Notes: a model not told the origin generated them from the letters alone. A DNA stretch of 64,000 bases from an uncultured Chitinophaga sp. (GCA_964631835.1 CAZWAD010000021.1:271-64270); one strand, 5' to 3'. Numbered from the stretch's first letter, positions 1,356 to 60,633 are shown. Numbers and translations are program-made.

Positions 1356-1518
1356 GGTTTGTGATTTTAGCTCCCTAAAAATAACCAACCTTTCCTAACC
1401 CTGAAAACTTTATTGCATCTGCACTGCCATAGCCTTTTCCGTAACTCCTACGCTACCGATTTTTGCTCCCGGAGTGCCTCCGCACTTTCCGTGCTTACAC
1501 TTCCCGTACTCCAACTAC

Positions 1519-1764
1519 CATTTTATAATATACAGCGGCACTTTCCGTACAGAAAGTGGCGATTTATAACGTAAAACACCACTTGGAGTACGGCAATTGT
1601 TAATCTATAACATAAAATACCGGTTTGGGTAGACAAATTCTTAATCTATAACGTAAAACAGCAGTTGCGGTAAAAAAAGTGGTATTCTATAAATTAAAAC
1701 ACCGGTTTGGGTGCCGGAACAGGCAGTATATAAAATACAAAGGCGATTGGGGAAGGTAAAGCGG
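1519..1764. repeat. Array A: 6 degenerate tandem units of exactly 41 nt (consensus about taatCTATAACGTAAAACACCGGTTTGGGTA...AAAGTGG)
   Basis: The TATAA core occurs at 1524, 1565, 1606, 1647, 1688 and 1729, a constant 41-nt spacing. The units align without indels. The array lies in the divergent intergenic region upstream of CDS 1918-2904. Confidence 0.8.
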
Positions 1765-1917
1765 CAAAAAGAATAACCGGATTGTCATGGTTTTGTCATA
1801 AAACTTAAAAAGTGTAAAAAAACGCAATATCAAATAAACCTTTTGCGTTAAGGAGTCATCAAACCGATAAAAGAAAAAAATAAATGCAGCACGGCTACTT
1901 AACCAAAACAAAGTTTT

Positions 1918-2904
1918 ATGAGTACCGAAAGTCCGTGGAGGTATCGTATCAATACCTTCGAAGTAAACACCCGCAACAGCAACATAAAAATGCTGTCGCT
2001 TTCCACCGATACGCACGCCAAGCTGAAGGCTGAAGAAAGCAGCCCGGCTATTGCCGATATTCTCCTGATTTACGAACCGGTATTTTTCGCTTACCGCGAC
2101 CTCGACCAGCAGTACAAAGTGAAATCGGGCGAGTATGCCGGTACGACCACCGGTTTTGAAGAATACATGGAGCAGATGCCTCTTAAATTACGGCAATGGG
2201 AGAGTTTAATCCGTGCCGTGTATATTGAAGATTCACCTGAAGAAAGGGAAATTTTCCCGAACAAGCGCACTCCGTTCCTGGTTGGCACCTACGAAAATCG
2301 TTTAGATGCAGTTGGTGCATTGAAACTGAAAGTAGATGCCGATGCAGCATTGGCAACTGCAGCAGCCCAAATAACCAGTTTCTATAATGCATCTTTAGGT
2401 GCGCGATTAGTGCAGCAAACCAAAGAGGGCGCGCTGGGGCAAATAGGCGACCTGCGCGAAATTCAGCGGGTTATTTTATCGGAAGAACTGATGGGCGTAT
2501 TAGGTAAGCTGCTGTTTATTCACCGGCATAGTTTGGAAGAGGTGGAGCGTTACTTCGATTTATCGCTGCTGCGCGACACCGGTGATGCAGGCACCCTGGA
2601 AGTCGAAGACGATGTGGCTTCGGCAATGATTAAAAACATTGTGCTGGGAGATATAAACCCTTCGGCTGAAACGATGGTGATGTTTGAAATAACCGGTTCT
2701 ACGCTCAGGTTTTACTTTTCGCCCAATGCAGGTGATGCACCGGGGCCTGTATTTTATGAACGCGCACCGGGCACCACTACCATTACTATTGCCGAGTTTT
2801 CAACCTTACTCGGTTTTAGCGAAGGTGTTAACACAAAGCTAAACGTGCAGAATACCGGTGGAGCAAACGGGCATTACAAGATTACGTTCACCAAACTGCT
2901 TTAA
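1918..2904 (+). CDS. Hypothetical protein (orphan, no signal peptide) downstream of array A
   Basis: 328-aa ORF followed by a strong intrinsic terminator. I recognise no family motif. The start could alternatively be the Met at 1990. Confidence 0.65.
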   Translation: MSTESPWRYRINTFEVNTRNSNIKMLSLSTDTHAKLKAEESSPAIADILLIYEPVFFAYRDLDQQYKVKSGEYAGTTTGFEEYMEQMPLKLRQWESLIRAVYIEDSPEEREIFPNKRTPFLVGTYENRLDAVGALKLKVDADAALATAAAQITSFYNASLGARLVQQTKEGALGQIGDLREIQRVILSEELMGVLGKLLFIHRHSLEEVERYFDLSLLRDTGDAGTLEVEDDVASAMIKNIVLGDINPSAETMVMFEITGSTLRFYFSPNAGDAPGPVFYERAPGTTTITIAEFSTLLGFSEGVNTKLNVQNTGGANGHYKITFTKLL

Positions 2905-2934
2905 GCAGTTTATGTCATTCACTCGTTCAGCAAA

Positions 2935-2965
2935 CCCCGCTTCGAGGAACGGAGCGGGGTTTTTT
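2935..2965 (+). terminator. Rho-independent terminator of CDS 1918-2904
   Basis: CCCCGCT...AGCGGGG stem followed by TTTTTT. Confidence 0.75.
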
Positions 2966-2972
2966 ATGAAAT

Positions 2973-3001
2973 AAAAAAAGCCCGATGAAAATTCATCGGG
3001 C
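2973..3001 (-). terminator. Rho-independent terminator of tuf
   Basis: On the minus strand, a GCCCGATGA-ATTT-TCATCGGGC hairpin followed by TTTTTTT, 35 nt after the tuf stop codon. Confidence 0.8.
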
Positions 3002-3036
3002 TTCGTATTTTAATCTTCTCCTTTAGGAGAGAAGGA

Positions 3037-4236
3037 TTACTTCAAAATTTCAGTTACCTGACCGGCACCTACGGTTCTTCCGCCCTCGCGAATCGCAAAG
3101 CGAAGACCTTTTTCCATGGCAATGGGGTAAATAAGCTTGGTGGTAAGTGTTACGTTATCACCGGGCATTACCATTTCAACGCCTGCCGGAAGAGTGATTT
3201 CACCGGTAACGTCAGTAGTGCGGAAATAGAACTGCGGGCGGTACTGGTTGAAGAAAGGAGTGTGACGTCCGCCTTCTTCTTTGTTCAATACGTAAACCTC
3301 GCATTTGAATTCAGTATGCGGAGTTACCGAGCCGGGTTTGCAAACCACCATGCCGCGCTTGATTTGCTCCTTCTCGATACCGCGCAGCAGAAGCCCTACG
3401 TTGTCGCCTGCTTCGCCACGGTCAAGAATTTTGCGGAACATTTCCACACCGGTTACAGTAGATGTTTGAGCTTTTTCGCCCTCTTTCTGCAAGCCGATAA
3501 TTTCAACCGGGTCGTTGGAGTTGATTACTCCTCTTTCAATACGTCCTGTAGCCACAGTTCCGCGGCCGGTAATAGAGAAAACATCCTCAACCGGCATCAG
3601 GAAAGGCTTGTCAACATCGCGGGGAGGAACCGGAATCCAGCTATCAACGGCATCCATCAAATCTTCAATAGCTTTTACACCGGCAGGGTCGCCATTCAAA
3701 CCGCCCAGGGCAGAACCTTTGATGATAGGAATGTTTGCGCCATCGAATTTGTAGAAAGTAAGCAGGTCGCGGATTTCCATTTCGCCCAGTTCAAGAAACT
3801 CGGGGTCGTCAACCAGGTCAACTTTATTCATGAACACCACAATTTGAGGAACACCTACCTGGCGTGCCAAAAGAATGTGCTCGCGGGTTTGCGGCATAGG
3901 ACCATCGGTAGCAGCTACCACCAGTATAGCTCCGTCCATTTGCGCGGCACCTGTAACCATGTTTTTGATATAGTCAGCGTGGCCGGGGCAGTCAACGTGG
4001 GCATAGTGGCGGTTAGCCGTAGCATATTCCACGTGAGCGGTATTAATGGTAATACCTCTTTCTTTTTCCTCGGGGGCGTTATCAATCGAAGAGTAATCGC
4101 GCACCTCGGCAAGTCCTTTCTTTGAAAGCACCGTTGTAATAGCGGCAGTCAAAGTTGTTTTACCGTGGTCAACGTGACCTATAGTTCCGATGTTTACGTG
4201 CGGCTTGTCCTTAATAAATTTTTCTTTAGTAGCCAT
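3037..4236 (-). CDS. tuf: Translation elongation factor Tu
   Basis: 399-aa ORF with [18 protein letters not shown] and NKVD G-domain motifs. The sequence is EF-Tu-like over its full length. Confidence 0.98.
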
Positions 4237-4327
4237 TGTTACTGGTTTTAATTGAGTGTTTAATGTTTATTGAATTGTTTACTGTTTACTTTTTAAAAAA
4301 TACAAATCTTAATTCCAAAATATCCTG

Positions 4328-4399
<72 letters not shown>

Positions 4400-4436
4400 T
4401 TGTTAAGAAGCGGACTCATCAACCTCTTAATTTCTG

Positions 4437-4509
4437 AGCGGGAGACGAGGCTCGAACCCGCGACCTACAGCTTGGAAGGCTGTCGCTCTACCAACTGAGC
4501 TACTCCCGC
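4437..4509 (-). tRNA. tRNA-Gly (anticodon TCC)
   Basis: Acceptor GCGGGAG/CTCCCGC, D arm GCTC-AGTTGGTA-GAGC, anticodon loop CTTCCAA, T loop TTCGAGC. Confidence 0.9.
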
Positions 4510-4552
4510 AAATTATTCTGCCTCTGTATTATTCCCACCCGAAAATTAAGTG

Positions 4553-4635
4553 TGGGGAGATCAGGATTCGAACCTGAGAACTCGTAAGAGGACAGATTTA
4601 CAGTCTGTTGTCGTTGGCCACTTGACTATCTCCCC
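4553..4635 (-). tRNA. tRNA-Tyr (anticodon GTA), long variable arm
   Basis: Acceptor GGGGAGA/TCTCCCC, anticodon arm ACAGA-CTGTAAA-TCTGT, perfect T arm TCAGG-TTCGAAT-CCTGA. Confidence 0.92.
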
Positions 4636-4726
4636 CTTTAATTTTTAAAGGCGAATCTTCAAAGAACACTTCTCATCTTCTTCCGCTTTGCCTTCAACAG
4701 GTAATAAACCGGAAGACATCTGTTTG

Positions 4727-4799
4727 AGCCCGAGGATGGATTCGAACCTCCGACCTGCTGATTACAAATCAGCTGCTCTACCAACTGAGCTACTCGGGC
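4727..4799 (-). tRNA. tRNA-Thr (anticodon TGT)
   Basis: Acceptor GCCCGAG/CTCGGGC, anticodon arm GCTGA-TTTGTAA-TCAGC, T loop TTCGAAT. The T stem has one A-A mismatch. It is the first gene of the Thr-Tyr-Gly-Thr-tuf unit. Confidence 0.88.
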
Positions 4800-4943
4800 T
4801 TATTATATCTCTTTCACCCCTGACTTTCCCGATACCATCGGAATGCTCTGCCAGTTACTCGGGCTTATTAAAAACAATCGTTTTGCAACTGCTTTTTATC
4901 TATATAAAATACAATGAACAAGCCCATTCGCAAAAACGGGACG

Positions 4944-4973
4944 CAAATCTAAACAGTTAATTTAATTTTCAAA
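4944..4973 (-). promoter_or_regulatory. Candidate Bacteroidota sigma-A promoter for the tRNA-tuf unit
   Basis: The minus strand reads TTTG-(18 nt)-TAGATTTG, which matches the -33 TTTG / -7 TAnnTTTG consensus. Confidence 0.45.
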
Positions 4974-5017
4974 AAGAAGGAAAAATAACGCGGGAACAGG
5001 ATTTAATGCGCGAAGAT

Positions 5018-5045
5018 AAAAAAAAGGCGGAAATCGTTTTCCGCC
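5018..5045 (-). terminator. Rho-independent terminator of hpf
   Basis: Minus strand: GGCGGAAA-ACGA-TTTCCGCC followed by a T8 tract. Confidence 0.8.
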
Positions 5046-5057
5046 TTTTTCTGTATT

Positions 5058-5357
5058 TCAGTAAGCCCTGAATTTTGCTTTTTGTTTTTTAAGCTGACCG
5101 GCTAATGTCTGTATTGCCAGGTCGGTGCTTTCTTCAAACGTTTTTGAGGTTTTGGCTACGAAAAGTGTTTTCCCCGGGACATGAACCTTAACTTCAACAA
5201 CCTTGTCTTTCACACTCTGCTTCGATTCCATTTTCAGAAATACCTCCGCCTCAACAATACGGTCAAAAAAGGTTTCGAGTTTGGAAAGTTTTTTGTTGAT
5301 ATAATCAACAAGCTGGGATGATGCATCAAAATGCACCGGATTAATTACAACATTCAT
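5058..5357 (-). CDS. hpf: Ribosome hibernation/ribosome-associated inhibitor factor (short HPF/RaiA family)
   Basis: The ORF 5058-5420 was trimmed to the internal ATG at 5357 (MNVVINPVHFDAS...). The length is about 100 aa and the layout is S30EA/YfiA-like. The position between the Xer-like gene and the tRNA-tuf unit fits this call. Confidence 0.8.
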   Translation of the reverse strand: MNVVINPVHFDASSQLVDYINKKLSKLETFFDRIVEAEVFLKMESKQSVKDKVVEVKVHVPGKTLFVAKTSKTFEESTDLAIQTLAGQLKKQKAKFRAY

Positions 5358-5513
5358 AAAGAACAAATTTATAGGGTTAGAAAATAATTTTCGCAGTTCT
5401 AAGTTAATCAGATATTTCAAAACTATAAAGCGGGTTACGATTTTTTTTGAAAAAAGTTTTCAGAAAAAACTTTCTCATTAAATAACGAACGGAAAAGGAA
5501 AAGATTTTTCGCC

Positions 5514-6398
5514 TTAGGCTTTTGGATGCGCCTGTTTATAGATATTTTTCAATTTATCTATGGTATTGTGAGTATAAACCTGTGTAGCTGCCAGGCTTGA
5601 ATGGCCTAAAAGCTCTTTGACTGCATTTATATCTGCCCCGTTATTCATCAGGTGGGTGGCAAAAGTATGGCGCAGGGTATGGGGGCTTTTTTTATCAACG
5701 GTAGTCACCAGATTCAGATATTTCTTAACTGTAGTGTAGGCGAATGCTGCCTGAAGTTTTTTACCCTTTTCGCTTACTAACAGAAAACTTCCTTCCTGTT
5801 CCGGTACGTTTTTTTTCTTCTCAGCAATGAATTTTTTAATTGAGTTTGTCAGCTCTGTATGAATAGGAATAATACGCTCCTTACTGCCTTTCCCCAAAAC
5901 CTTTATTTGCGAGCTATAGGAATCAAAGTCGGTTTCCTTCAGGTTGATTAGTTCGCTTCTTCGTATTCCGGTTCCGTAAAAGAGTTCAATCAGCATTTTA
6001 TCGAGCAGCCCTTCGTAACCTGCCGGAAACTCAATTTCCTTCAAAAGCCTGTCAATTCCTGTTAGCTCTACAAAAACCGGTAGCCGCTTAGATGTTTTCG
6101 GAGTTTGTACTTTTGCCAAAGGGTTCTTCTTAATGTGGCCCCTGCGCAGCGAAAATTTGTAAAAAGATTTCAACGCTGATACTTTCCGGTTTACCGAGCG
6201 GGCGGTAATTTTTTGTTCCATCATGCTCACTATCCAGTTTCGGATATCAGTGTGTGTGGCTTCGCTCAGCTGTTTTTCATAAGATTTCAGGAAAGAAGCA
6301 AACTGAGAAAGGTCGTTGCGGTACGACTCCAGTGTATGACGGGAGTATCGCCTTTCAAATTCAAGGTAATTGAAAAAGGATTGGGCTTCGGGTAACAT
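5514..6398 (-). CDS. Tyrosine-type site-specific recombinase (XerC/XerD-like)
   Basis: 294 aa with an N-terminal SAM-like core-binding domain ([23 protein letters not shown]). The C-terminal catalytic residues are in typical context ([38 protein letters not shown]). Confidence 0.88.
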
Positions 6399-6488
6399 TC
6401 TTCAAAGGTAAACGCGTAAAGGATGTTTTGATTGCACATTTCAACCCTCCGGAAGTAATATGGACATTTTCAGAAATCAAACCGGCAT

Positions 6489-6521
6489 AAAAAACAAAAC
6501 CCCCGAAGTTATTTCCGGGGG
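6489..6521 (-). terminator. Rho-independent terminator of CDS 6544-8478
   Basis: Minus strand: CCCCCGGAAATAACTTCGGGGG followed by TTTTGTTTTTT. Confidence 0.75.
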
Positions 6522-6543
6522 TTGTAAAAGCTTTAAGCAAGAA

Positions 6544-8478: not shown

Positions 8479-8552
8479 AGAGAGCCGTTTTATTGTTTTT
8501 GTTTAATTAAATAATTGTTGAGTAAAAATAGCCGTTTTACTTATAAGGGACG

Positions 8553-9940: not shown

Positions 9941-12900
9941 CTATTCGCGGCATTTTAAAATCATCCCTCCTGCGTTGCCCGGCTTGGAGTGAAGCACTTT
10001 CGACATCAGGGGCTTTTTCCTTTTCAACTCATTCCGGTCGTTTGCCACATCGCCATCATAAATGTCAATGCGGAGTGTATTTAGCCCGTATTTGCCTTTG
10101 TTCCATGCTTTGGAAATAATGTAGTTTTCGCCACCTGAGTCTAAAACTAAAATCCTTTTAATCATCCCTTTTTCGGGAATGTGAATCATGTCGCGGTTTA
10201 CAATTACTTGTCCGTTGAAGATAATGGAGACCGTGTCATTATCTTCTTCCCCATCATCATAAATAAATGCGGTAACTAAACAACTGCTTATTTCTGCCTT
10301 ATGTTCGTAGCTTACTGAATCGGTTCCGAGGCTCAATGCTTCATCTATTTTTTCGGGCACTACGATTGGCTCACTGAAAACATCGTTTTTGATAATTACA
10401 CTATAGGTACACATTTGATAATTTCCCGATGGGTCAACCGCTCTGTATATAAAAGGATGAACGCCCACCTGTAGGAAGCATCCGCTCTTGGAGCCAACCA
10501 CCTGAATAAAACTGTCAATACCGCAGTTGTCGCGCACAGCCGGTTCGCGGTAATAGTAAACAATCCCTCTTCGGGTCACGGGTAAATGAATGGTGGTGTC
10601 TGCCGGGCAGTTATTGAACACCGGTGCCTCTTTATCTTTCGGGCAGGGCTTATGTGCCGATTTGTAGTTCTTCAGCGGAACGGCATCGGGCTTCATGTCT
10701 GCCGGTATGTTTTCGACCGGTATGGGAACCACCGGTGGGGGAGTTTTTTTCTTTTCCTCTTTTACCGGTTCGGGTTTCTTTTCTTTTCCGGCTGAGGGTG
10801 GAAAAAAAGGCTTCTCCGCTTCTTCCTTTTTTTCCTTGAACTCAGGGTTTTCTGCCGGTTTGTTTTCAGCGGGTTCCTTTTGCCTTGTTTCTTTTACTAC
10901 CGGTTGCTCAGGTAACTTCTTCTCCTCCGCCTTAGCTACTGCCGGCTGGACAGGTTTATCCGGCTGTTCAGTCTCCTTTACAACCGGTGGTTCTGGTGCC
11001 TTTTTCTCTTCGGTTTTTGGTCCAGCCGGTTTTCCCTTTATCTCAGGCTTTACTTCAGCGGTCTTTGTTGCAGTAACTGTTTTCTCTTCCTTTTTCATTT
11101 CAAGCGGGGGTGGCGCAGGCTTCTGAACTTCTTTTATAGCCTCTTTTACTTCCTCTTTTTTTACCACCACCGGAACCGGCTGTGCTTGTTCTTTCTCCTC
11201 TTGCTTTACTACCGGCAGCGGTTCAATTTTTTCCGGTTGTTTCGGCTTTTCTTCTTCCACAGTTATTATAAAACTGCACACACCCTTGTTGCCTGAAGCA
11301 TCTTGAGCCTCGTGCGTCACCACGGTAACGCCCACCGGAAAATCGCTACCACTCTTTAAACCTGAAACTAATTTAACGGGGAGCCCGATTCCATCGTCAT
11401 AAGCTACAGGAAGTACATAATTCAAAGGTGTTGATTTTTGTCCTGCCGGGGTTATGGCTTTAATATCAGCAGGGCAGGTGAGCACCGGTGAGGTGGTGTC
11501 GAGCACGGTAACCTTGAAGCTGCAAACGGTTTTGCCTGCAATGGAATCGTTCCATTCATATTCTATTTCAGTAACACCGATAGGAAACATGGAGCCGCTT
11601 GAAAGCCCTTTGGTGCGCGTCATGCGGATGGTTGTGCCTCTTATTTTCAAAAGCGGTTCATTGTAATTTACAGCAATATTGTATTTGCCGGGAGGAGAGT
11701 AAGCTACCTGGTCGTTGGTGCAGTGGTAAATGGTTTTGATGGTTTCTTTCAGGATTATTCTGATGCTGCATTCGGCTTTGTTGCCGGAGGCATCAGTGGC
11801 GATATACTGCACCATGGTATTGCCCACCGGAAACTCACCACCGCTCGGAGGACCAGATACCCGTTCCACCTTTACACCGGGGCAGTTATCGGTGGCAACC
11901 GGTATGGGGTAGTTTACGATGCCTGAGTTTTCGCCCTCGGGTGCACGCATGGTTACATCAGGCGGGCACTGAAACACGGGCGCCTGCTTATCGCTGATGG
12001 TTACGAAGAAACTGTCCACTACTTTTTTGCCGGTGGAGGTGGTAGCTTCGTAAGCAATTACATTTTTACCCGCATCGAACAGCGAGCCGCTGGGCAATCC
12101 TTTGATTTGTTTCAATTCGGTTTTCCCGCAGCCGGTAGTAACTGCAGGTTCGGCAAAAGCCACCACCGCAGAGCACTGTCCGGCATCGGCATTTTTCTGA
12201 ATATCATCGGGAAAGGTGATGGAAACTTGCTCACCGATCTTACCGGTTTGGTCATTGAACAGGTCTGTAATTTCGCTGAAGGACAAGCCCCTGCGGAAAA
12301 CGAATACATCGTCAAGACTGCCGCGGAAATATTTACCGGTGCTCAAATCGCGCCCTAATTCAAGCGCCAGGTTGTTTGCGGGCAGGGGCCTCATGCTTAC
12401 CCCTTGGCAAATTAACTGGTTGTTGAGGTACACGTAAACAAAGGTTCCATCGAGGGTGATGGCGAGGAAATACCACTTGTTGAACTCAATGGGGTGGGAG
12501 AGGTAAGATGGGTCCTGTACCCAAAAGTCGCTGCTCAGAAAAATATCGGCATAGCTGTTACCAAATGTTTTTTTGAGGCTGAGGCAGTATTGCGCTTTGG
12601 CACCGGTACCGGTTTCGGAGCCGGCTTTTGAAATAAGCGGAAGGGTTAAGTTGCTGCTGCCGGAGGGGTCTTTTTCGGCTTTGAACCAGGCGGCCAGGGT
12701 GATGGAGAAGGTTATGGCTTGCAGGCCGGTGGCGTTAGGCACCGAAACATAACCCGTGGTGCCATCGAAACGGAGGGCACCGCAGGCATTGCCGAAGCGG
12801 TCTTCGGCTATGGTAACTCCGCCTTTCACTACACCGTGGTTGCTACCGGTCTTATCGGCAGCGTTGCCGTTGAGCGGATAATGAGCCGCCAGCCCACCGG

Positions 12901-12985
12901 AGGGAGCCTGAGCCACCGGTTCTAATGCATGTAAAAAAAGAAAGGCCGCTGTTAAGTATCGTAACAAGTATTGCGCAGTTTTCAA
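9941..12985 (-). CDS. Large secreted LamG/HYR-domain protein with K/E/P-rich spacer
   Basis: Contains a concanavalin/LamG-like region (LSFSEITDLF context) and several HYR-like repeats (CPPDVTMRAPEGENSGIVNYPIPVATDNCPGV...). A low-complexity KEP linker of about 185 aa follows. The proposed TTG start at 12985 gives the signal peptide MKTAQYLLRYLTAAFLFLHALEPVAQA. The ATG of the ORF track (13186) adds 67 aa that look non-native. Confidence 0.8.
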   Translation of the reverse strand: MKTAQYLLRYLTAAFLFLHALEPVAQAPSGGLAAHYPLNGNAADKTGSNHGVVKGGVTIAEDRFGNACGALRFDGTTGYVSVPNATGLQAITFSITLAAWFKAEKDPSGSSNLTLPLISKAGSETGTGAKAQYCLSLKKTFGNSYADIFLSSDFWVQDPSYLSHPIEFNKWYFLAITLDGTFVYVYLNNQLICQGVSMRPLPANNLALELGRDLSTGKYFRGSLDDVFVFRRGLSFSEITDLFNDQTGKIGEQVSITFPDDIQKNADAGQCSAVVAFAEPAVTTGCGKTELKQIKGLPSGSLFDAGKNVIAYEATTSTGKKVVDSFFVTISDKQAPVFQCPPDVTMRAPEGENSGIVNYPIPVATDNCPGVKVERVSGPPSGGEFPVGNTMVQYIATDASGNKAECSIRIILKETIKTIYHCTNDQVAYSPPGKYNIAVNYNEPLLKIRGTTIRMTRTKGLSSGSMFPIGVTEIEYEWNDSIAGKTVCSFKVTVLDTTSPVLTCPADIKAITPAGQKSTPLNYVLPVAYDDGIGLPVKLVSGLKSGSDFPVGVTVVTHEAQDASGNKGVCSFIITVEEEKPKQPEKIEPLPVVKQEEKEQAQPVPVVVKKEEVKEAIKEVQKPAPPPLEMKKEEKTVTATKTAEVKPEIKGKPAGPKTEEKKAPEPPVVKETEQPDKPVQPAVAKAEEKKLPEQPVVKETRQKEPAENKPAENPEFKEKKEEAEKPFFPPSAGKEKKPEPVKEEKKKTPPPVVPIPVENIPADMKPDAVPLKNYKSAHKPCPKDKEAPVFNNCPADTTIHLPVTRRGIVYYYREPAVRDNCGIDSFIQVVGSKSGCFLQVGVHPFIYRAVDPSGNYQMCTYSVIIKNDVFSEPIVVPEKIDEALSLGTDSVSYEHKAEISSCLVTAFIYDDGEEDNDTVSIIFNGQVIVNRDMIHIPEKGMIKRILVLDSGGENYIISKAWNKGKYGLNTLRIDIYDGDVANDRNELKRKKPLMSKVLHSKPGNAGGMILKCRE

Positions 12986-13366
12986 GTGGGTAAACTTAAT
13001 ATATAACGCAGTTTTATGCCCCGGGTTTTTACTTACAATAGCCGCTTTGTATAATATGTAAGACGTTGGAGTGGAGTTTATCCTCACAAGTGCTGAGCAG
13101 GAGGACGCTGTCACCCTAAGCCTGCGGGAGCGTGAATGCAAGATGCTTCTTCTCCGTTCAGCAAAAAAGGAAAGGCACTGGCACATTGAACTTGTCGAAA
13201 TGTTATAATGGATGAATATAAGATGCTTTGGCTACGCTTTGCTCCGCTTAACTTGGCATGGGGCAAAAAATGAAGATTGCTGCAAGAACAAGAGCATACA
13301 TCTGCTAAAAAAACTTTTAGCATTCAACCCGCCATAGTGGGTTTATTATAAAAGAAAAGGGAGCGG

Positions 13367-14300: not shown

Positions 14301-15350
14301 GTGAAAGAGATTACCGCGAAGGAATTAGCCGCTTTGCTGGATGCAAGGCTTGAAGGAGACCCCGAAACAAAAGTTTCCAAACTCGCCAAAATTGAAGAAG
14401 CTGACAAGGAATCGTTCTGTTTTCTCGGTAACCCCAGGTACTTTCATTACGCGCAAACAGCAAGTGCAGGTATTCTTCTATGTGATGAAACCTTAGACTA
14501 CAACCGGGCGAATATTTCAGCGGCCCTTCGGGTAAGGGAACCCTACCAGGCTTTTCAGAAATTGATGGAACTTTACGCCTCCATGAATGGCAGGGAAAAA
14601 ACATCGCAGATTGAAGAGTATTCGCACATAGGAAAAAACACTGTCTACGGCAGCAACTTCCATTTGGGGGCGTTCAGCTATGTGGGGGATAACGTAAAGA
14701 TTGGGAACAATGTAACCATTTACCCCAACTGCTATGTGGGCGATAATGCCGAAATAGGAGATGACACTATTCTTTATGCTAACGTATCGGTTTATTACGA
14801 TTGCAAAATTGGCAGCCGCAGTATTCTTCACTCAGGCGCGGTAGTTGGTTCCGATGGGTTCGGATTTGCCCCTCAGGCGGACGGGAGCTACAAAAAGATA
14901 CCTCAAACCGGCAACGTAGTTATCGGAAATGATGTGGAAATTGGCTCTAACACTTGTATAGACCGCGCAGTGATGGGTTCCACTCACATTCGCGATGGAG
15001 TAAAGCTCGATAACCTCATTCAGGTGGCTCACAATGTTGACATTGGCGAAAACACGGTGATTGCAGCGCAGGCGGGTATTTCGGGCTCCACCAAATTTGG
15101 CAAAAACGTGATGATAGGAGGGCAGGCCGGAATCACCGGTCACCTAAACATTGCCGATGGAGTAAAAATTCAGGCTCAGTCAGCTGTTATCCGCGATGTA
15201 ACCGAAAAAGGGAAAGGAATTTCAGGCGCACCGGCTACTGATGCGCGCGAACACTACCGCATACTTGCTTCCATGAAAATTCTTCCGCAGTTAATCCAGC
15301 GGGTAAAAGAACTGGAAAAGAAAATAGAAGAATGGAAAAACCAGTTGTAA
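14301..15350 (+). CDS. lpxD: UDP-3-O-(3-hydroxyacyl)glucosamine N-acyltransferase
   Basis: GTG start. Has the LpxD N-terminal domain followed by left-handed beta-helix hexapeptide repeats. Lies in an lpx gene cluster. Confidence 0.92.
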   Translation: MKEITAKELAALLDARLEGDPETKVSKLAKIEEADKESFCFLGNPRYFHYAQTASAGILLCDETLDYNRANISAALRVREPYQAFQKLMELYASMNGREKTSQIEEYSHIGKNTVYGSNFHLGAFSYVGDNVKIGNNVTIYPNCYVGDNAEIGDDTILYANVSVYYDCKIGSRSILHSGAVVGSDGFGFAPQADGSYKKIPQTGNVVIGNDVEIGSNTCIDRAVMGSTHIRDGVKLDNLIQVAHNVDIGENTVIAAQAGISGSTKFGKNVMIGGQAGITGHLNIADGVKIQAQSAVIRDVTEKGKGISGAPATDAREHYRILASMKILPQLIQRVKELEKKIEEWKNQL

Positions 15351-21279: not shown

Positions 21280-21375
21280 TTCTTTTCGCAAAACTAAGGA
21301 TAAATAAACCACAAGTTCCCGCATCCGCTAAAAGCGCAAGAGAGAACTCGAAGCACTTTAAACACAAATTTTTGC

Positions 21376-21711
21376 GAAATGTCTACGATACGAAGAAAAC
21401 AGTCTATGTTACCATCTATCGAGTCTATGTTACATGCTGAAATGCCTTGAACAGCATCTGTCATGGACATGTTCGATGCTATCATGTCTATTACAGATTG
21501 AATCGTGTCTATTTCATTTCGAAAGCAAGGCTCGATAGCAAGTGTTTTGTCTGTGTCAGATTCTATCGTGTCTGTTTCACTTCGAATCATGTCTACTCCA
21601 CTTCGTAACATGCCTGTGTTTGATGGTAACATGCCTATGATTCTTCGTGATGTGGACTCGTTTCGTGCTGGAATAGACATGTTGGAGAAAAGTGTGTTAA
21701 AGTTGCTGAAA
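21376..21711. repeat. Array D: 15-16 degenerate tandem units of exactly 21 nt (consensus about ATCRTGTCTRTTTCAYTTCGA)
   Basis: The core G(T/C)CT recurs at 21381 + 21k for k = 0..14 with no indels, as listed in the findings. Confidence 0.85.
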
Positions 21712-21841
21712 AGTGAGCACAAATGAGGTTTTCGGCTAATCACCCCCAAATGTTTTGAGGTAATATTCGAATGCATGCAGTCTTTTTGCCCCGCTTTTGT
21801 GGTAATCAGATAACCTGAGGTATCGTTTCTTAAATCACCGG

Positions 21842-38165: not shown

Positions 38166-38390
38166 TTAGTTCTGTTTTGGGGGAACTATACGCAGCTTAC
38201 CGTTGAAACCGTTGGCAAGCTTGAGCAATTTAGGCAGTTTTGGAGTTTTAACTCCTTTTTCAATATTGCAAATATCTGAGCGGTCAACGCCCGATGCAGC
38301 TTCCAGGTCGCCTAACGACATATGGAAGCTTTCCCTTAATTCTTTAAGGTGGAGGCAAAACTCGCTGTGTAGAACCTGTTCTTTTTTCAT
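38166..38390 (-). CDS. XRE-family helix-turn-helix transcriptional regulator (74 aa)
   Basis: LKELRESFHMSLGDLEAASGVDRSDICNIEKG matches the Cro/C1 HTH pattern. Confidence 0.8.
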   Translation of the reverse strand: MKKEQVLHSEFCLHLKELRESFHMSLGDLEAASGVDRSDICNIEKGVKTPKLPKLLKLANGFNGKLRIVPPKQN

Positions 38391-38425
38391 GACTAAGAAT
38401 TTTCAGCCAAGTTCATGAATGTTAA

Positions 38426-38463
38426 AATCCGTACTGTTGGCGTTCCCGCCAACAGTACGGATT
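38426..38463. promoter_or_regulatory. Perfect 17-bp inverted repeat with 4-nt spacer (candidate operator or hairpin)
   Basis: AATCCGTACTGTTGGCG-TTCC-CGCCAACAGTACGGATT. Located 36 nt upstream of the HTH gene start and 99 nt before array B. Confidence 0.6.
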
Positions 38464-38561
38464 ACATCTGCCTTCATTTTTGCAGCGTAATCAATACCAA
38501 ACCCAACATGCAATCAACCCGCTTCAGTTCTACCGGTACACAAATGAGCAGAGGCTCTGCT

Positions 38562-38813
38562 GAACTCCCGAGGGCTTCTGCAACACGTAACAAACCACAA
38601 CCGGAACTCCCGAGGGCTTCTGCAACGTGTAACAAACCTCAACCGGAACTCCCGAGGGCTTCTGCAACGCGTAACAAACCTCAACCGGAACTCCCGAGGG
38701 CTTCTGCAACGCGTAACAAACCCCAACCGGAACTTCCGAGGGCTTCTGCAACACGTAACAACCCCCAACCGGAACAGCGGAGGGCTTCTGTAACAGGTAA
38801 CAAACCAATTTTT
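38562..38813. repeat. Array B: 6 tandem units of exactly 42 nt (GAACTCCCGAGGGCTTCTGCAACGCGTAACAAACCTCAACCG)
   Basis: Units start at 38562, 38604, 38646, 38688, 38730 and 38772. Units 1-5 are about 90% or more identical and unit 6 is degenerate. The array ends 22 nt before the ATG at 38836. Confidence 0.92.
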
Positions 38814-38835
38814 AAACTATAAAACCCAATTTACC

Positions 38836-40038
38836 ATGCCAAAACGTAAACTACCCCGTACCGATGAAGAGCGCGACACCGCACTTCGCACAGCCAAGAA
38901 CCGCAAAGATGCAGTTCCGCCTCCGCTCATTATTCCTTATACCGGAGCTACCATCACGCGGCTCGACACTTTTCAGCCCGCATACCGCACCAAGTACCTG
39001 GCGGTAGCTTCAGCCAAGAACGCCCAAACCGCGCTAACGGAACAAGTGTTAGAAGCCAAGCAGCAAGCCACTTATTATATTCTTGATTTTATAGATGCGC
39101 TCAACCGCGCCATACGCAGAAAACAGTTTTTGCCTTCGGTTCGCGCCTTGTATAATATTGATGTGAATGACGACCGCGCACCTGAAATAGATAATGAAGC
39201 CGATGTAACCACCTGGGGCGAAAACATTGATGCCGGTGAAACCACCCGCATTGCTGCCGGTGGAGCGCCCATTACTTTTCCATCGCTGGCGCAGGTAAAT
39301 ACCGCAGTAGGCAATTTCAATACGCTGAACGCCCAGCAAAGCAACGCGAAAGAAGCCTATGACATAGCCCAGGAAGCACTGGCTGCCGATAACCCCGAAG
39401 CCGATAAACTAATTCTGAAGCTGTGGAACGAAACCGAAACTGCTTTTGACGAAGGCAACAAGAGCAGTATGAGGCGCAAAGCCCGCGAATGGGGGGTGGT
39501 TTATACCATTGCTTCGGGCGAAGTGCTCAGCCCCGAAGAGTTTTCGATTACCGGTAAAATATCCCTGTCGGTTCCGGGCGCACCAGTACCGGTTGCCGAT
39601 GCGGTGATTACTGTGCTGGAAACAGGCGAGTCGGTACTCAGCCAAAGCAATGGCAACTACTTTATTACCGTGCTGCCTGCCGGAACCTACACACTGGTAG
39701 TGGATAAGGTGGGGTACACCTCTCAAACCATCAATAATGTAGCAGTTGTTGAAGGAGAGATAACTACGGTTAACGTTCAATTAGTAACAGCCGCCAGCAA
39801 CGGAAGCATAGTAGGCACGGTTACCCTGGGCGGCAATCCGGCATCGGCTACGGTAAGCATTGACGGCACCACATTCAGCACCAACACCGCCTTTACGGGC
39901 GTTTATACCATCGAAAATATACCGGCAGGAAACATAACGGTGCGCGCAACCATTATTGCCGACCCGGTAAATTTTCAAACACAAAATGTAACCGTGGTTG
40001 CCGGTGTGGCCACCGAAGTAAATTTCAGCTTCCCGTAA
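38836..40038 (+). CDS. Hypothetical protein (orphan N-terminal region plus two CarboxypepD_reg-like beta-sandwich domains), no signal peptide
   Basis: 400 aa with a basic N-terminus (MPKRKLPRTDEERD). The C-terminal segments GNYFITVLPAGTYTLVVDKVGYTSQT and GVYTIENIPAGNITVRA resemble carboxypeptidase-regulatory-like domains. Confidence 0.72.
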   Translation: MPKRKLPRTDEERDTALRTAKNRKDAVPPPLIIPYTGATITRLDTFQPAYRTKYLAVASAKNAQTALTEQVLEAKQQATYYILDFIDALNRAIRRKQFLPSVRALYNIDVNDDRAPEIDNEADVTTWGENIDAGETTRIAAGGAPITFPSLAQVNTAVGNFNTLNAQQSNAKEAYDIAQEALAADNPEADKLILKLWNETETAFDEGNKSSMRRKAREWGVVYTIASGEVLSPEEFSITGKISLSVPGAPVPVADAVITVLETGESVLSQSNGNYFITVLPAGTYTLVVDKVGYTSQTINNVAVVEGEITTVNVQLVTAASNGSIVGTVTLGGNPASATVSIDGTTFSTNTAFTGVYTIENIPAGNITVRATIIADPVNFQTQNVTVVAGVATEVNFSFP

Positions 40039-53605: not shown

Positions 53606-53641
53606 TTTCTCTCTCACCATTTCTTTTACATTTGCCGCCCT

Positions 53642-55038: not shown

Positions 55039-55046
55039 GGCGAATC

Positions 55047-55601: not shown

Positions 55602-55603
55602 AA

Positions 55604-56917
55604 TTATTCCGATGCTCTGTCAATAAGTATTTGAGATAATTGTTTGGTAGTTTTTGCTCCGAGTTCTTTCATTTTTTCTGCCCGCCTTACAAGGTTGCCG
55701 CTGCCTTCGTGCAGTTTTTTCATAGCGTCTTCGTAATCGATTTGAGTTTTCTTGATGCCGTTGCCAACTTTTATCAGGTCTTCCACAAACGCAACAAATT
55801 TGTCGTAAAGTTTACCTCCTTCATCAGCAATTTCAATTGCATTTCGGGTTTGTCTTTCCTGTTTCCAGATAGATGCAATGGTTCTTAAAGTTGCCAGCAG
55901 AGTTGATGGACTGACAATTACAATTTTTTTATCCCAGGCGTAATTAAACAATTCTGTATCACCCTGAACTGCTAAGCTGAACGAAGACTCAATCGGAACA
56001 AACAGTAGAACAAAATCAGGAGTTTCCAACCCGGTTGTTGTTTGATAATTCTTATCGCTCAATAATTTCACATGATTGCGCAACGACTCAATATGGGCTT
56101 TCAGAAATTTCATCCGTTCTTCTTCTGTAGAGGCATTTATACAGGCGTTATAAGCCACGAGAGAAACTTTTGAGTCAACAATTACATGCTTGTTGTCAGG
56201 AAGGAATATGACGACATCTGGTTTTATGCGTTCACCCGCATTGTTGGTGGAAGTAAATTGACTTTTATATTCTGTTCCTTCAGTCAGTCCGCTTCGCTCA
56301 AGAATTTTTTCGAGTACAAACTCACCCCAATTGCCTTGCTGTTTATTGTCATTTTTTAATGCAGCAGCTAACTGATTTGCTTCTTCACTTAGCTGTTTAT
56401 TCAGCTCCAGGAGGTTTTTGATTTCGGTTTTAAGTGTAATCCTTTCAGCCGATTCTGCTTTATAAGTTTGGTCTACCTTCTGCTCAAACTCCTTGATTCG
56501 CTCTTTTAGAGGGTTGAGAATCACATCGAGGTTAGTTTTATTTTGCTCGGTAAACTTTTTGCTTTTCTCGTCCAGAATCTTGTTGGCAAGGTTTTCAAAC
56601 TCTTTGGTGAAACGTTGGTTTAATTCTTCCAGTTCGTGTTTTTGTTCTTCCAGTTTTTGTTTCAGGTTATCATTATCCGTTTTTGCAGATGCCAATGACA
56701 CACCAAGCAACTCTGACTTTTTTCTTTCATCACTGAGTTTAGTTTCCTGGTTTTCCTTCAGTAGCTTTATCTCGTTTTTTAACTCAATAATGTTCGCTTC
56801 CTGTAACCTTGCCTTTTCGTTAGCAGCAGCCAATTCACCCCCGCTTTTGCTTTTGAGAGATAAAAACGCCAAGGCAAATCCCGCAGCTAATCCCATTCCG
56901 AGAAAAACAAATTCCAT
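55604..56917 (-). CDS. rmuC: DNA recombination protein RmuC
   Basis: N-terminal TM helix, a long coiled coil, and a C-terminal RmuC nuclease-like domain (PDVVIFLPDNKHVIVDSKVSL). The start was moved to MEFVFLGMG. Confidence 0.86.
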   Translation of the reverse strand: MEFVFLGMGLAAGFALAFLSLKSKSGGELAAANEKARLQEANIIELKNEIKLLKENQETKLSDERKKSELLGVSLASAKTDNDNLKQKLEEQKHELEELNQRFTKEFENLANKILDEKSKKFTEQNKTNLDVILNPLKERIKEFEQKVDQTYKAESAERITLKTEIKNLLELNKQLSEEANQLAAALKNDNKQQGNWGEFVLEKILERSGLTEGTEYKSQFTSTNNAGERIKPDVVIFLPDNKHVIVDSKVSLVAYNACINASTEEERMKFLKAHIESLRNHVKLLSDKNYQTTTGLETPDFVLLFVPIESSFSLAVQGDTELFNYAWDKKIVIVSPSTLLATLRTIASIWKQERQTRNAIEIADEGGKLYDKFVAFVEDLIKVGNGIKKTQIDYEDAMKKLHEGSGNLVRRAEKMKELGAKTTKQLSQILIDRASE

Positions 56918-56995
56918 TCTTATTGGTTTGAGTTTTAAAAATAGCAATCCTCAGAAGAACGAAAATTATTTTCAATTTCGTCCCCGGATTTTAAA

Positions 56996-58174
56996 ATGAA
57001 AATAACGCCCGCTCTATTTGAAGACACACAAACCGCTTTTGCCGGTAAAAGCAATGCCGATTTGCTAAAAGCAAAAGCTCTTTTTCAATTAATAAATAAA
57101 AGTATGCTGGTGAATTTGGGCAGTTCATTAGCAACATTTGCTTTGTCGTTTCGTCTTCCGGTTTCGTCTTTGTTTAAGTGGACGGTTTACGACCAGTTTT
57201 GTGGCGGTGAGACTTTCGATGAGTGCAAACGCACTATTCAGCTTTTAGAAAAGCGCGGTGCAGGTGTGTTGCTGAACTACGGTGTGGAATTAAAGGAGAG
57301 GGAAGAGGATTTCGATAAGACGTTAGAGCAAAACGTGGAAGCGCTTGAGTTTGGCGGTGAGAACAAGTCGGTGAAAGGGCTATGCATTAAGCTGAGCGGA
57401 TTAGGCCGATTTGAGTTGCTTGAGAAAATACAATCCGGTGACAGAGTTTCAATTAAAGAGAAGAAAGAGCTGGTTCGTTTTAAAAAACGCTTTGAAAAAA
57501 TTTGTCGCAGCGCATTATTAAATGACGTACCGGTGTATGTGGATGCGGAGGAAAGCTGGATTCAGAACCCGCTTGATGAAATGACGGAGGAGATGATGCG
57601 GAAGTACAACCGGGGGAAGTGTGTATTGTTCAACACGTTTCAGATGTACCGGTGGGACAGGCTCAATTATCTAACCTCACAAATTGAAAAAGCGAAAAAG
57701 GGAGGCTACCTGCTCGGTGCAAAAATTGTCCGCGGAGCCTACATGGAAAAAGAACGGGAACGGGCTGCAGAAAAAAACTATCCTTCACCTATTCATAAAA
57801 ACAAAGAAGAAGTTGACCGCGATTTTGATGAAGCCGTGAACCTGTGCCTGGCGAATCTGGAGCATGTTTTTGTTTGTGTGGCTTCGCAAAGCGAGGAAAG
57901 TAATTTGCTAGCGGTGCAGCACGTTGAGGAGAGAGGCTTACCTCGTCAATCCGAGCGGATTATTTTTTCGCAACTCTATGGCATGGGTGATAACATCACA
58001 TTCAACCTGGCACATCAGGGCTTCAATGCCACCAAGTATTTGCCTTACGGACCTGTGAAAGATGTGATTCCTTACCTCATACGCAGGGCCCAGGAAAACA
58101 CTTCGGTAGGCGGGCAGACAGGAAGCGAATTGGCGTTGATTAAAAAAGAAATTGCGCGAAGAAATCAGAAATGA
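56996..58174 (+). CDS. Proline dehydrogenase (monofunctional PRODH)
   Basis: VYVDAEESW, FNTFQMYR, KIVRGAYMEKER and FSQLYGM motifs of the PutA PRODH barrel. Confidence 0.82.
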   Translation: MKITPALFEDTQTAFAGKSNADLLKAKALFQLINKSMLVNLGSSLATFALSFRLPVSSLFKWTVYDQFCGGETFDECKRTIQLLEKRGAGVLLNYGVELKEREEDFDKTLEQNVEALEFGGENKSVKGLCIKLSGLGRFELLEKIQSGDRVSIKEKKELVRFKKRFEKICRSALLNDVPVYVDAEESWIQNPLDEMTEEMMRKYNRGKCVLFNTFQMYRWDRLNYLTSQIEKAKKGGYLLGAKIVRGAYMEKERERAAEKNYPSPIHKNKEEVDRDFDEAVNLCLANLEHVFVCVASQSEESNLLAVQHVEERGLPRQSERIIFSQLYGMGDNITFNLAHQGFNATKYLPYGPVKDVIPYLIRRAQENTSVGGQTGSELALIKKEIARRNQK

Positions 58175-59211
58175 ATTTCACTCAGGCGAATACTGTGTGA
58201 AATCTGTTCTCCTCCTGCCTCATTAAAAGCTTTGAAAAATATTTTAGGGTCATTTTGGTTCCAATCAATTTCAATCATTCCGAAATTGCGGTAAATGTAA
58301 TTAGTGCCAACCCGATTTGTATTTGGATAAGTTTCTCCATCTATCTGGGTTAATCCGCTGGATGTCATATCATAAACCGGGTATACTCCGGCAAGATTTA
58401 TCAGTGAAAGCTCGGCAATGTGTACATCTCCAGAAATAAATACAACTCCGTTGGCGGTTGTTTCTTTAATGGCTTGAAACATTTTAGCTTGTTCCAACGG
58501 AAAATTTGCCCATGCTTCGTAACCGTTATGTGAACGTGCAAACTGGGTGCTGCTTCCGATAATACGCAATCTCGCGGGGTTTCTTAACTCATTTTTCAGC
58601 CAGTTCCACTGTGCTTCTCCAAGCATGGTTGCTAATGAATCAAAATTGGCGACATAATCACCGTTTGCATCTTCAATGAGTTGTGAGCGAAACGTTCTGC
58701 AGTCCAGGAGAATGATTTGAACGCGATGCGCTGAATCTCCATAGTAATAGGAGGTATAAATACCCGGATGAATTCTTCTTTCTGAAACAGGCGGTTCATT
58801 CCAGAAATCGAGGAAAATACTTTTTGATTCTTCTTTCTTCGGATACTCTGAACCCGCATCATTATCTCCATAATCATGGTCGTCCCATGTGGCGATTACT
58901 TTGCATGAACCAAGAAGATTTTGAAACTCGGACTTGCAGCTCAGGTGGCCATACTTGGTGAGCAGCAGATTCATATCTTCTGTATCACCGTATATGTTAT
59001 CACCGAGGTAAACGAATATATCGGGCTGTTTTGAAACAACAGAATTGAGAATTGGTTGTTCTTTTGTTTCCTTCGAGCAGGAACCGAATGCGATTTTTGA
59101 AATGATTCCTGTTGGCTCACTGTGCAAAGGTCGGGAACAAAGAATAACGGGGTCAGTTTTGCAGGAAGAAAGAAGCACCAAAGTAAAGCACGAAAGTAAA
59201 CTGCGCAGCAC
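58165..59211 (-). CDS. PhoD-like alkaline phosphatase/metallophosphoesterase lipoprotein
   Basis: Lipobox LLSSC plus [17 protein letters not shown] and GDVH metallophosphatase motifs. Confidence 0.8.
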
Positions 59212-59262
59212 TGTTTGAAAATTGATTGGCTGAAAATAGCAATTGATTACATTCGCTTTACC

Positions 59263-60294
59263 ATGAATAAAAACCTTCAGTCAGAAAAAGCTGATTTGTC
59301 AACCGAAGAACAGGAGGTCGAAAAATCCCTCCGGCCGAAGGTGATTGATGATTTCATGGGTCAGCCGAAGGTGGTTGATAATCTTTATGTATTTATTGAA
59401 GCCGCTAAGCAACGCAGCGAATCGCTGGACCATGTGTTGCTTCACGGACCACCGGGTTTAGGCAAGACCACCCTGAGTTATATTGTTGCCAGTGAGATGA
59501 ATGTGGGCATTAAGATTACATCGGGGCCGGTGCTGGAAAAGCCCGGAGACCTTGCAGGACTGCTTACGAATCTTCAGCCGAATGATGTGTTGTTTATTGA
59601 TGAAATTCACCGGCTGTCACCGGTTGTGGAGGAATACCTCTATAGTGCTATGGAAGATTTCAAGATTGATATTATGATTGACAGCGGACCCAATGCGCGC
59701 TCAGTTCAAATCGGCCTCAATCCATTTACACTTGTTGGCGCAACCACACGCTCCGGGTTACTTACAGCACCGCTGCGCTCGCGTTTCGGCATTACTTTCC
59801 GCATGGAATATTATGATGCTGAAATTCTTAAGAATATTATCAAGCGCTCAGCAAGAATTTTAAAGGCAGAAATTAATGACGATGCGGCTTATGAAATTGC
59901 ACGGAGGAGCAGAGGAACACCGCGGATTGCGAACCTTCTTCTTCGCAGGGTGCGAGACTTTGCACAGGTAAAGGGTGACGGAACCATCAACCTGAAAATA
60001 ACCAAACACGCGCTCGAGGCGCTGAATGTTGACCTGCACGGGCTGGATGAAATGGACAACCGTATTCTTGCAGCAATTATCAATAAGTTTAAGGGAGGGC
60101 CTGTGGGTATTACGACTATTGCCACGGCAGTAGGGGAGGAAACAGGAACTTTAGAAGAGGTTTATGAGCCTTTTTTGATTAAAGAAGGGTTTATCAAGCG
60201 CACCCCGCGCGGAAGAGAGGTGACTGAACTTGCTTATAAGCACCTCGGCAAGACTCCGCCAGCAGTTGGCGGTAGTTTGTTCCAGAATGATTGA
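59263..60294 (+). CDS. ruvB: Holliday junction branch-migration helicase RuvB
   Basis: [10 protein letters not shown] Walker A and LFIDEIHRL Walker B motifs, [16 protein letters not shown]-like segment. The start was moved to the ATG at 59263. Confidence 0.95.
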
Positions 60295-60360
60295 GATTGT
60301 GGTTTTGTAAGACCTGATTCGGATGGAGCAGCTGTTTATCTGCCCCGTACAGGCTTAAAT

Positions 60361-60633
60361 TCTTGTCTGTAACTATTGATTTGTTGACTGTAACTATTAG
60401 TTTGTTGTCTGTTAGGTATGATTTGTTGTCTGTAAGCATTAAGTTGTTGTCCGGCAGATGTAAATTGTTATCTGTTAGATATGAATTGTTGTTCGTTAGA
60501 TACGTTTTGTTGTCTGTTATTATCTAATTGTTGCTCGTTAGATATAATTTGTTGGCTGTAAGTATTGATTTGTTGTCTGTAAGATGTAAGTTGTTGTCTG
60601 TAAGATTTAAATTGTTTGGTTTCAGGGTTAGTT
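60361..60633. repeat. Array C: 13 tandem units of exactly 21 nt (consensus TGTTGTCTGTAAGATNTAAKT)
   Basis: Units start at 60361 + 21k for k = 0..12 with no indels, and 11 of 13 begin TGTT. The array lies in the convergent intergenic region between ruvB and the FemAB-like gene. Confidence 0.9.

Follow-up and report, generated by a model that had tools for sequence, protein, structure and literature searches.

Tandem DNA repeats of fixed period are known from several bacterial systems. Small dimeric proteins bind cooperatively to tandem operators in the case of omega of pSM19035 (7-bp heptads), MetJ (8-bp metboxes) and ParR (parC iterons). Longer units are found in sopC of the F plasmid, with 12 repeats of 43 bp that contain an inverted repeat, and in plasmid iterons, which are direct repeats of 17-22 bp with a period of about 22 bp; iterons are accompanied by an adjacent Rep gene and an origin with an A+T-rich region and DnaA boxes, and centromere arrays by an adjacent operon of the parA/parB type. 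The operators of LytTR regulators such as AgrA, ComE and PlnC consist of two 9-bp repeats ([TA][AC][CA]GTTN[AG][TG]) separated by a 12-13-bp spacer, giving a period of about 21 bp. In clustered regularly interspaced short palindromic repeats (CRISPR), conserved repeats alternate with unique spacers of similar length and cas genes lie nearby. Here we describe four tandem repeat arrays, A, B, C and D, in a 64-kb piece of a Bacteroidota chromosome from an uncultured Chitinophaga sp. (GCA_964631835.1 CAZWAD010000021.1:271-64270), called the window below and numbered from the first letter of the whole stretch. Two of them, A and B, are part of array-plus-gene modules that recur in other genomes.

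Among the Bacteroidota, the BrickBuilt elements of Porphyromonas gingivalis are dispersed, strictly intergenic arrays near gene starts for which an influence on transcription has been proposed; they form one sequence family with a 23-nt unit, about 19 copies per genome and a leader and tail with inverted-repeat ends (PMC4596501). The arrays described here are likewise intergenic tandem arrays, but their units are 21, 41 or 42 nt long, their sequences differ between arrays and two of the classes are tied to specific gene families across genera. The similarity between their consensus units is at the level of shuffled sequences and the only flank feature that they have in common is the 8-mer CCGTACWG.

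Like the cooperative operators, the arrays consist of many head-to-tail sites in exact register, with a putatively regulated gene downstream and often a small regulator gene nearby, and the protein filament known from those operators may, by analogy, have a counterpart here. The operators have units of 7-11 bp, whereas the arrays have units of 41-42 bp whose sequence is replaced between genomes at fixed length, and they are tied to two target gene families, unlike operators of the regulator's own operon. With sopC and the iterons the arrays share the size class of the unit, the spacing of about two or four helical turns and similar copy numbers, but they are chromosomal, lie in a housekeeping context and have partner genes for acidic proteins with a helical bundle plus Ig-like domains (P0001 and P0002, see below). 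A Pfam scan of all larger open reading frames (ORFs) in the window gave no Rep-like gene, P0001 and P0002 had no Rep, PHROG or NCBIfam match, and neither the window nor the flanks of related loci contained a ParA, ParB, ParM or ParR gene or sopA/sopB. Because no rep or par gene accompanies the arrays, the membership in the iteron or centromere classes suggested by a sequence-only reading of the window was given up.

LytTR operators have the 21-bp period of arrays C and D, but only two repeats, as compared to 6-15 in the arrays. The cores of C (TTGTTGTCTGTnAG) and D (TCRTGTCTRT) did not fit the LytTR consensus in a comparison by eye, and Pfam scans of the 64-kb window gave no LytTR gene; such genes are present beside or near the 42-nt arrays of the related loci L039 and L032-34. 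As to CRISPR, entire units are repeated including the part that would be the spacer, and no cas genes were found in the Pfam scans. The arrays thus depart in at least one tested defining feature from each known class compared. The sequence-only reading knew of no described family with such a layout, and a literature search gave no fitting description either, nor any of 41/42-nt arrays tied to these gene families. The two array types are an undescribed class of element, while phased binding arrays as a kind are already known.

Two conserved array-plus-gene modules with fixed unit length

The four arrays have the following positions in the window:

1436..1763, plus strand: array A, 41-nt period, units clear at 1559-1763 (five) and degenerate but in phase at 1436-1558 (three)
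38562..38813, plus strand: array B, 6 units of 42 nt, 92% matches, 0% indels, gene-sense strand A/C-rich
60345..60617, plus strand: array C, 12 units of 21 nt (60366-60617) and a degenerate first unit at 60345 (CCGTACAG...)
21370..21684, plus strand: array D, non-palindromic direct repeat of 15 units (21 nt each) with about 61% identity to their consensus

When a sliding autocorrelation (lags 5-120) was run along the entire window, these four regions ranked highest; they peaked at 0.70, 0.95, 0.71 and 0.57, respectively, as compared to a maximum of 0.447 in five shuffles. The remaining periodic stretches were coding repeats; weaker signals of this kind were seen at 10767-11076 (lag 84, inside the HYR/LamG protein gene 9941-13186) and at 14616-15211 (lag 54, in the hexapeptide-repeat LpxD gene). 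Listing the units in phase bore out the exact, indel-free register claimed for A (41 nt), B (42 nt), C and D (21 nt). The 7% indels reported for array C by Tandem Repeats Finder (TRF) are a matter of alignment choice, since TTGTTG occupies columns 16-21 in 12/12 units. As regards the unit numbers given before, those of B (6), C (12 and one degenerate) and D (15) stood, and A, for which six had been counted, has five clear units (starting at 1559, 1600, 1641, 1682 and 1723) and three degenerate ones that carry motifs of the TTCCGTAC type. The unit of array C consists of the contiguous 14-nt conserved core given above and a 7-nt variable spacer, and the core of array D is (A)TC(R)TGTCTRT.

Array A is placed between gene P0001, whose start (1918) is 148-155 nt from the end of the array, and a divergent gene for a secreted protein:

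1918..2904, plus strand: gene P0001, encoding an acidic protein whose N-domain is all-helical and whose C-domain is a beta-sandwich, without signal peptide or family annotation
1..1355, minus strand: gene for a secreted PKD-domain protein with signal peptide MKTKLLTVALLIFCFALQA, running off the left end of the window, divergent from array A and P0001

P0001 has no annotation in Pfam, PHROG or NCBIfam and belongs to a small family (49 matches). The first relative, from a different genus (L008; 72% identity in a conserved protein), was found while collecting relatives of the TMEM260-like gene that adjoins array D, and it carries a 41-nt array of 4.6 units upstream of the P0001 homologue. A metagenome scan for relatives of P0001 returned 21 loci. 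Fifteen other loci of the P0001 family had a 41-nt array; in 14 of them it lies upstream of the gene, and in one it follows the gene. Arrays of about 5-9 units lie about 30-190 nt upstream of the homologue in L012, L014, L015, L016, L018, L020, L024, L025, L026, L027, L028 and L031; the array of L022 is further off, about 1 kb upstream, and that of L021 lies downstream of the gene at a contig end. With these two exceptions the array was found at most about 200 nt upstream in the orientation of the gene (13/15 loci). TRF gave a period of 41 for 12 arrays (array A, L008 and ten metagenome loci), and in L014, L025 and L027 this period was obtained by autocorrelation alone. The identity of array-bearing relatives to P0001 is as low as about 35%. 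P0001-type modules stand alone, with neighbours that are unrelated from genome to genome.

The start codon of gene P0002 (38836) follows the end of array B at a distance of about 22 nt, and a small regulator gene and a palindrome lie on the other side of the array:

38836..40038, plus strand: gene P0002, encoding an acidic protein whose N-domain is helical and which has two CarboxypepD_reg Ig-like domains; next come genes for cargo proteins of the type IX secretion system (T9SS)
38166..38390, minus strand: small helix-turn-helix gene of the XRE family (74 aa, isoelectric point (pI) 9.3), divergent from array B and P0002, candidate array-binding regulator
38426..38463, no strand: perfect palindrome ATCCGTACTGTTGGCG..CGCCAACAGTACGGAT with 17-bp arms, between the XRE gene and array B

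There are about 90 homologues of P0002. A 42-nt array was present upstream of the gene in 6/6 other independent loci (L032/35, L033/34, L036, L037/38, L039 and L040), and in every P0002 locus that was fetched a 42-nt period, or its 84- or 126-nt multiple, ended 20-60 nt before the start codon. Two of these arrays are mixed. In L037/L038 (2460-2960) the distal units of L038 are 41 nt and the proximal units 42 nt, and L040 (2640-2945) has a higher-order period of 125 nt, i.e. 42+42+41; the mixing of both lengths in one array suggests that they can interconvert by 1 nt. P0002-type modules stand at the head of T9SS cargo gene clusters. In the window (XRE, divergent), in L037/38 and L040 (XRE) and in L039 (a stand-alone LytTR gene) the array has a small DNA-binding gene as its neighbour, and in L032-34 a LytTR gene is located 3-4 kb upstream of the array in the same cluster. 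The palindrome of the window lies 36 nt upstream of the start codon of the XRE gene and about 100 nt before array B; CCGTACTG is present in both of its arms, its minus-strand tail holds only four T residues, and it may be the operator of the XRE protein. The remaining flanking DNA of the fetched P0001 and P0002 loci was free of further 41- or 42-nt arrays, and no relatives of these genes were found in viral contigs.

Comparison of the loci has shown two conserved array-plus-gene modules with fixed unit length, each laid out as about 5-12 tandem units located about 20-190 nt upstream of one particular gene family. The unit is 41 bp for the P0001 family and 42 bp (sometimes 41) for the P0002 family. 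Both proteins lack a signal peptide and have a pI of 4.7-5.4. Given that they are acidic, P0001 and P0002 are unlikely to bind the arrays, and this candidate role was rejected. AlphaFold models of both were confident, with a predicted local distance difference test (pLDDT) score of 87 for P0001 and 89 for P0002. In Foldseek searches of PDB and BFVD the models were matched only at their C-terminal beta-sandwich domains, which are predicted to be Ig-like or jelly-roll, and the N-domains had no structural relative; nor did the N-domains match anything in PDB sequence profiles, PHROGs or NCBIfam. Aligning the two N-domains with hhalign gave no homology. Arrays A and B belong to two separate modules, whose protein families have no detectable homology. 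The C-terminal beta-sandwich of P0001 (window 2560-2904) is 67-69% identical to the C-termini of P0183-P0185, proteins of 365-407 aa with an N-terminus unrelated to P0001, and some members of the P0001 family carry a CarboxypepD_reg domain, as P0002 does. Domain shuffling between these families is indicated.

Within one array the units are 70-97% identical to their own consensus, and between loci the consensus units have no recognisable common sequence. The close relatives L015 and L016 (3666-3938 and 3611-3938) share the flanks of the array and 27 nt of the unit. A 14-nt block has been replaced coherently in all internal units with the length unchanged, and the edge units hold an older variant, CTCCGTAAGT. 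Copy number also changes: L032 and L033 encode an identical P0002-family protein and have arrays of 8 and 10 units, respectively, which answers the call for a comparison of unit numbers between strains. It is common for the arrays to show higher-order periods as well, at 82, 84, 123 and 126 nt. The homogenised units, the sequence replacement and the change in copy number suggest concerted evolution with rapid turnover and apparent selection on unit length, so that selection looks to act on the length of the unit and not on its sequence. The claim that spacing itself is constrained, made from the window alone, gains far stronger support from these comparative data.

Candidate functions of the arrays

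Arrays A and B represent, in this genome, two conserved cis-elements that occur side by side in Chitinophagales and related Bacteroidota. We tentatively read these elements as helically phased multi-operator DNA, and we hold this with a little less than even confidence. The arrays would work as DNA and control the downstream gene. Each unit would provide one or two dyad-symmetric sites about 20.5-21 bp apart, i.e. two helical turns, on which dimers of a small sequence-specific regulator could load side by side along one face of the helix. The XRE or LytTR protein encoded nearby would play this part in the 42-bp class, and another factor in the 41-bp class. The resulting cooperative nucleoprotein filament would set downstream transcription, with the length of the spacer selected and its sequence free, and copy number would tune the response. 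This reading is preferred because of the two-turn dyads, the fixed length and free sequence of the spacers, the lack of an RNA strand bias and the adjacent XRE or LytTR genes. A phased DNA-binding array, as put forward in the sequence-only reading, is thus the best available mechanism at this tentative level, though not one serving a single common factor.

Many of the units hold dyads of 16-22 bp. Examples are CTGACACGCGTGTCAG and CATTYTGAAAACCAAAATG in L038, CCATTCGCACATGTGCGAATGG in L039, CTCTGTAAnnnTTACAGAG and CTAACCA..TGGTTAG in L026 and L031 and CCGTTAACAGTTAACGG in L020, and CATTTTGAAACCAAAATG is another strong dyad among the array units. In five 41-nt arrays of other genomes the centres of the two strongest dyads are 20.5 nt apart; this indicates an underlying spacing of about 21 bp and agrees with the previously claimed period of about 21 bp or its double. 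The mismatches within dyads comprised 63 G-T and 81 A-C, i.e. there was no strand bias and no excess of G-T. Fold z-scores were alike on both strands when each strand was given its own shuffles, and those of window arrays A and B were near 0; an apparent stability of the antisense strand was gone after this correction.

Several observations weigh against the multi-operator reading. Helical phasing alone leaves the difference between the 41- and 42-nt families without explanation, arrays A and B of the window are weakly palindromic, and the flanks of the related 41-nt loci hold no accompanying regulator gene. At the positions matching those of arrays C and D, no such array was present downstream of ruvB in L008 or upstream of the TMEM260-like gene in L008 and L009. 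In L032-35, L037/38 and L039 the genes on either side of the array point in the same direction and its end is 20-60 nt away from the ATG, a placement which suggests that the array may well be transcribed. Finally, all seven B-type arrays have more C than G on the gene-sense strand (and more A than T where tabulated), as do 10/14 of the 41-nt arrays with respect to C over G, and this bias suits a transcribed leader better than a symmetric operator array.

The last two points are what chiefly speaks for a repeat-bearing leader RNA, the main rival and a serious one, which we regard as somewhat less likely. The arrays would then be transcribed in the 5' leader or intercistronic part of the P0001 or P0002 mRNA and act through repeated hairpins or unstructured C/A-rich modules on protein binding, Rho loading or mRNA stability and translation, and the unit length would be fixed through an RNA-protein ruler. 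Many units are indeed able to form hairpins (z-scores down to -9), and array C has an A/C-rich minus strand with next to no structure. However, the strand asymmetry in folding vanishes with strand-own shuffles, G-T mismatches are no more frequent than A-C in the dyads, the z-scores of window arrays A and B are those of shuffled sequence, and in Rfam 15 the gathering score was reached only by four tRNAs, with no match of E<=5 over any array.

A reading of the arrays as tandem promoters was rejected by inspection, as no element was conserved across loci. An argument from promoter position, namely the lack of TAnnTTTG between array and ATG, was dropped; its absence is uninformative because the box occurs upstream of only a few genes of the window. 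This Bacteroidetes -7 box was found for 3/25 genes when 150 nt upstream were checked in the window, and the promoters of the lineage may deviate from the Bacteroides/Flavobacterium consensus.

It is also conceivable, if unlikely, that the arrays are a "metered" cis-element in which a protein or ribonucleoprotein ruler counts the unit length (41 or 42) independently of sequence. A nucleoprotein or RNA scaffold would then control the acidic helical-bundle/Ig-like proteins that lack signal peptides, copy number would be a heritable expression dial, and the same machinery would act on C and D as orphan arrays.

Neutral or selfish minisatellites (variable number tandem repeats, or repeats borne by miniature inverted-repeat transposable elements), whose period would be inherited, kept by unequal crossing-over and functionless, are an improbable explanation overall and one that concerns mainly C and D. 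Array C is located in a convergent intergenic region with ruvB and a FemAB-like gene on either side, and array D between miaA and the TMEM260-like gene. Both are pure direct repeats without dyads, neither has a partner gene, and their period is the only tie to A and B. The lack of a partner gene and their absence from the matching positions in relatives are what would be expected of such repeats, as are, for the arrays in general, the difference in copy number between strains and the higher-order periods and less homogenised edge units that are typical of unequal crossing-over; moreover, BrickBuilt (PMC4596501) shows that dispersed intergenic minisatellites occur in Bacteroidota. On the other hand, the presence, position and unit length of A and B persist to 35-45% protein identity despite full replacement of the sequence. 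Given that neutral decay would change or lose the period, this persistence counts against a neutral origin of A and B. Likewise, the 15 units of D hold register over 315 nt in spite of their low identity to the consensus, and the arrays have no common leader or tail with inverted repeats and no 23-nt units. Arrays C and D may be lineage-specific phased binding arrays, with much lower confidence than the reading of A and B, or alternatively they may be young minisatellites.

A scan with a degenerate C/D double core of 185,579 species genomes, the genome of the window not being among them, gave 7 matches and no array of the C/D type; the matches were due to chance or to short repeats, and several were FQDTDKK-type heptads in coding sequence. 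Of the further checks suggested together with the sequence-only reading, the Rfam search gave no match to an array, and in the relatives examined counterparts were found for A and B. In unrelated bacteria, coding heptads (FQDTDKK and FDQIDMK types) mimic 21-nt ACAGAC arrays, e.g. L001:5355-5566, L004:2086-2337 and L007:7488-7741. A different case is an indel-free 21-nt array of 11.8 units between two large genes of a GC-rich, unrelated metagenomic genome (L010:5184-5431, JGI 3300044904), which has the palindrome GACTTAATCAAGTC in each unit and is annotated as a 230-aa "protein" (P0137) with TDLIKSE heptads. Intergenic 21-nt arrays in exact phase thus also occur outside the Bacteroidota.

The sequence-only reading had further proposed one dispersed iteron- or centromere-like family with related cores (TCTRTAAC / TGTCTRT) and a single genome-wide factor, which now appears very improbable. 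The four periods are all 21 or about 2x21 nt, as such a family would have. However, when the four consensus units were tested against shuffled versions, neither their best ungapped match over 16 nt nor the longest word that they share exceeded shuffle level (p = 0.09-0.35), and unit sequences were locus-specific. The core TCTRTAAS was not enriched outside the arrays (6 copies there, with 5.25 expected in the window as a whole). Among 6-mers, CTGTAA was shared most widely, occurring in 5/17 independent array consensuses, a marginal recurrence (p = 0.03 on the sense strand only, 0.28 on both strands). The CCGTAC elements said to sit beside the arrays are real insofar as CCGTACWG has 7 copies (1.5 expected), of which 4 flank A, B and C; it is the single sequence-level claim that stands out. 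Both isolated copies of the 10-mer TATATAACGC also exist, but the pair was a post hoc choice, one copy lies inside the coding ORF 9941-13186, and by our own estimate about 2,000 repeated 10-mer pairs are expected in 64 kb. The lack of rep, parA and parB genes in the window and the outcome of the double-core scan likewise argue against this family.

Coding or decayed coding repeats, with 21 nt as a heptad and 42 nt as a 14-residue repeat, are barely credible, although no stop interrupts the minus frame over D and just one interrupts a minus frame over C, and gene callers have annotated ORFs over arrays elsewhere. The open frame over D is as follows:

21294..21776, minus strand: 160-aa ORF over array D, judged spurious, no protein family, its "third positions" being the most conserved repeat columns

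In array D conservation is highest in the columns that would be third codon positions and lowest in those that would be second positions, and an exhaustive HMMER search with the ORF gave no family, only a 55-aa fragment from a relative (P0131). Array C is built of 14-nt conserved and 7-nt variable blocks, no frame of array A is free of stops, and units of 41 nt, which is not a multiple of 3, cannot stay in frame. A 135-aa ORF (38415-38822) spans array B, but open frames over B-type arrays yield unrelated peptides between loci, and no ORF over an array had a Pfam match. The codon-position pattern, the absence of a family and the reading frames speak strongly against the decayed coding repeat considered earlier, and, judged by sequence, all four arrays are non-coding and intergenic. 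Spurious ORFs have been called over arrays at L032:5541-5981, L033:5457-5981 and L038:2465-2959 (146, 174 and 164 aa, respectively), and the window ORFs 21294-21776 and 38415-38822 would be called likewise by gene callers.

Genomic context and implications

The gene content of the window is ordinary and includes EF-Tu with four tRNAs, lpxD/lpxC/lpxA, miaA, ruvB, rmuC, glycosyltransferases and T9SS cargo proteins. Genes for a XerC/D-like tyrosine recombinase (5514-6398) and a ribosome hibernation factor (5058-5420) lie beside the four-tRNA cluster (4327-4799), about 3.6 kb from array A. In a Chitinophagales relative, a 362-nt tandem duplication with two genes for RRM_1 RNA-binding proteins was seen (L009:15208-15940).

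Databases and gene callers already hold spurious array "proteins", such as the 146-, 164- and 174-aa calls, P0131 and P0137. The modules also define two uncharacterised protein families by their conserved non-coding partner, one of which, P0002, heads T9SS cargo clusters. If confirmed, the arrays would be a widespread, unannotated regulatory architecture in environmental Bacteroidota, and they would offer a natural experiment on selection for spacing instead of sequence.

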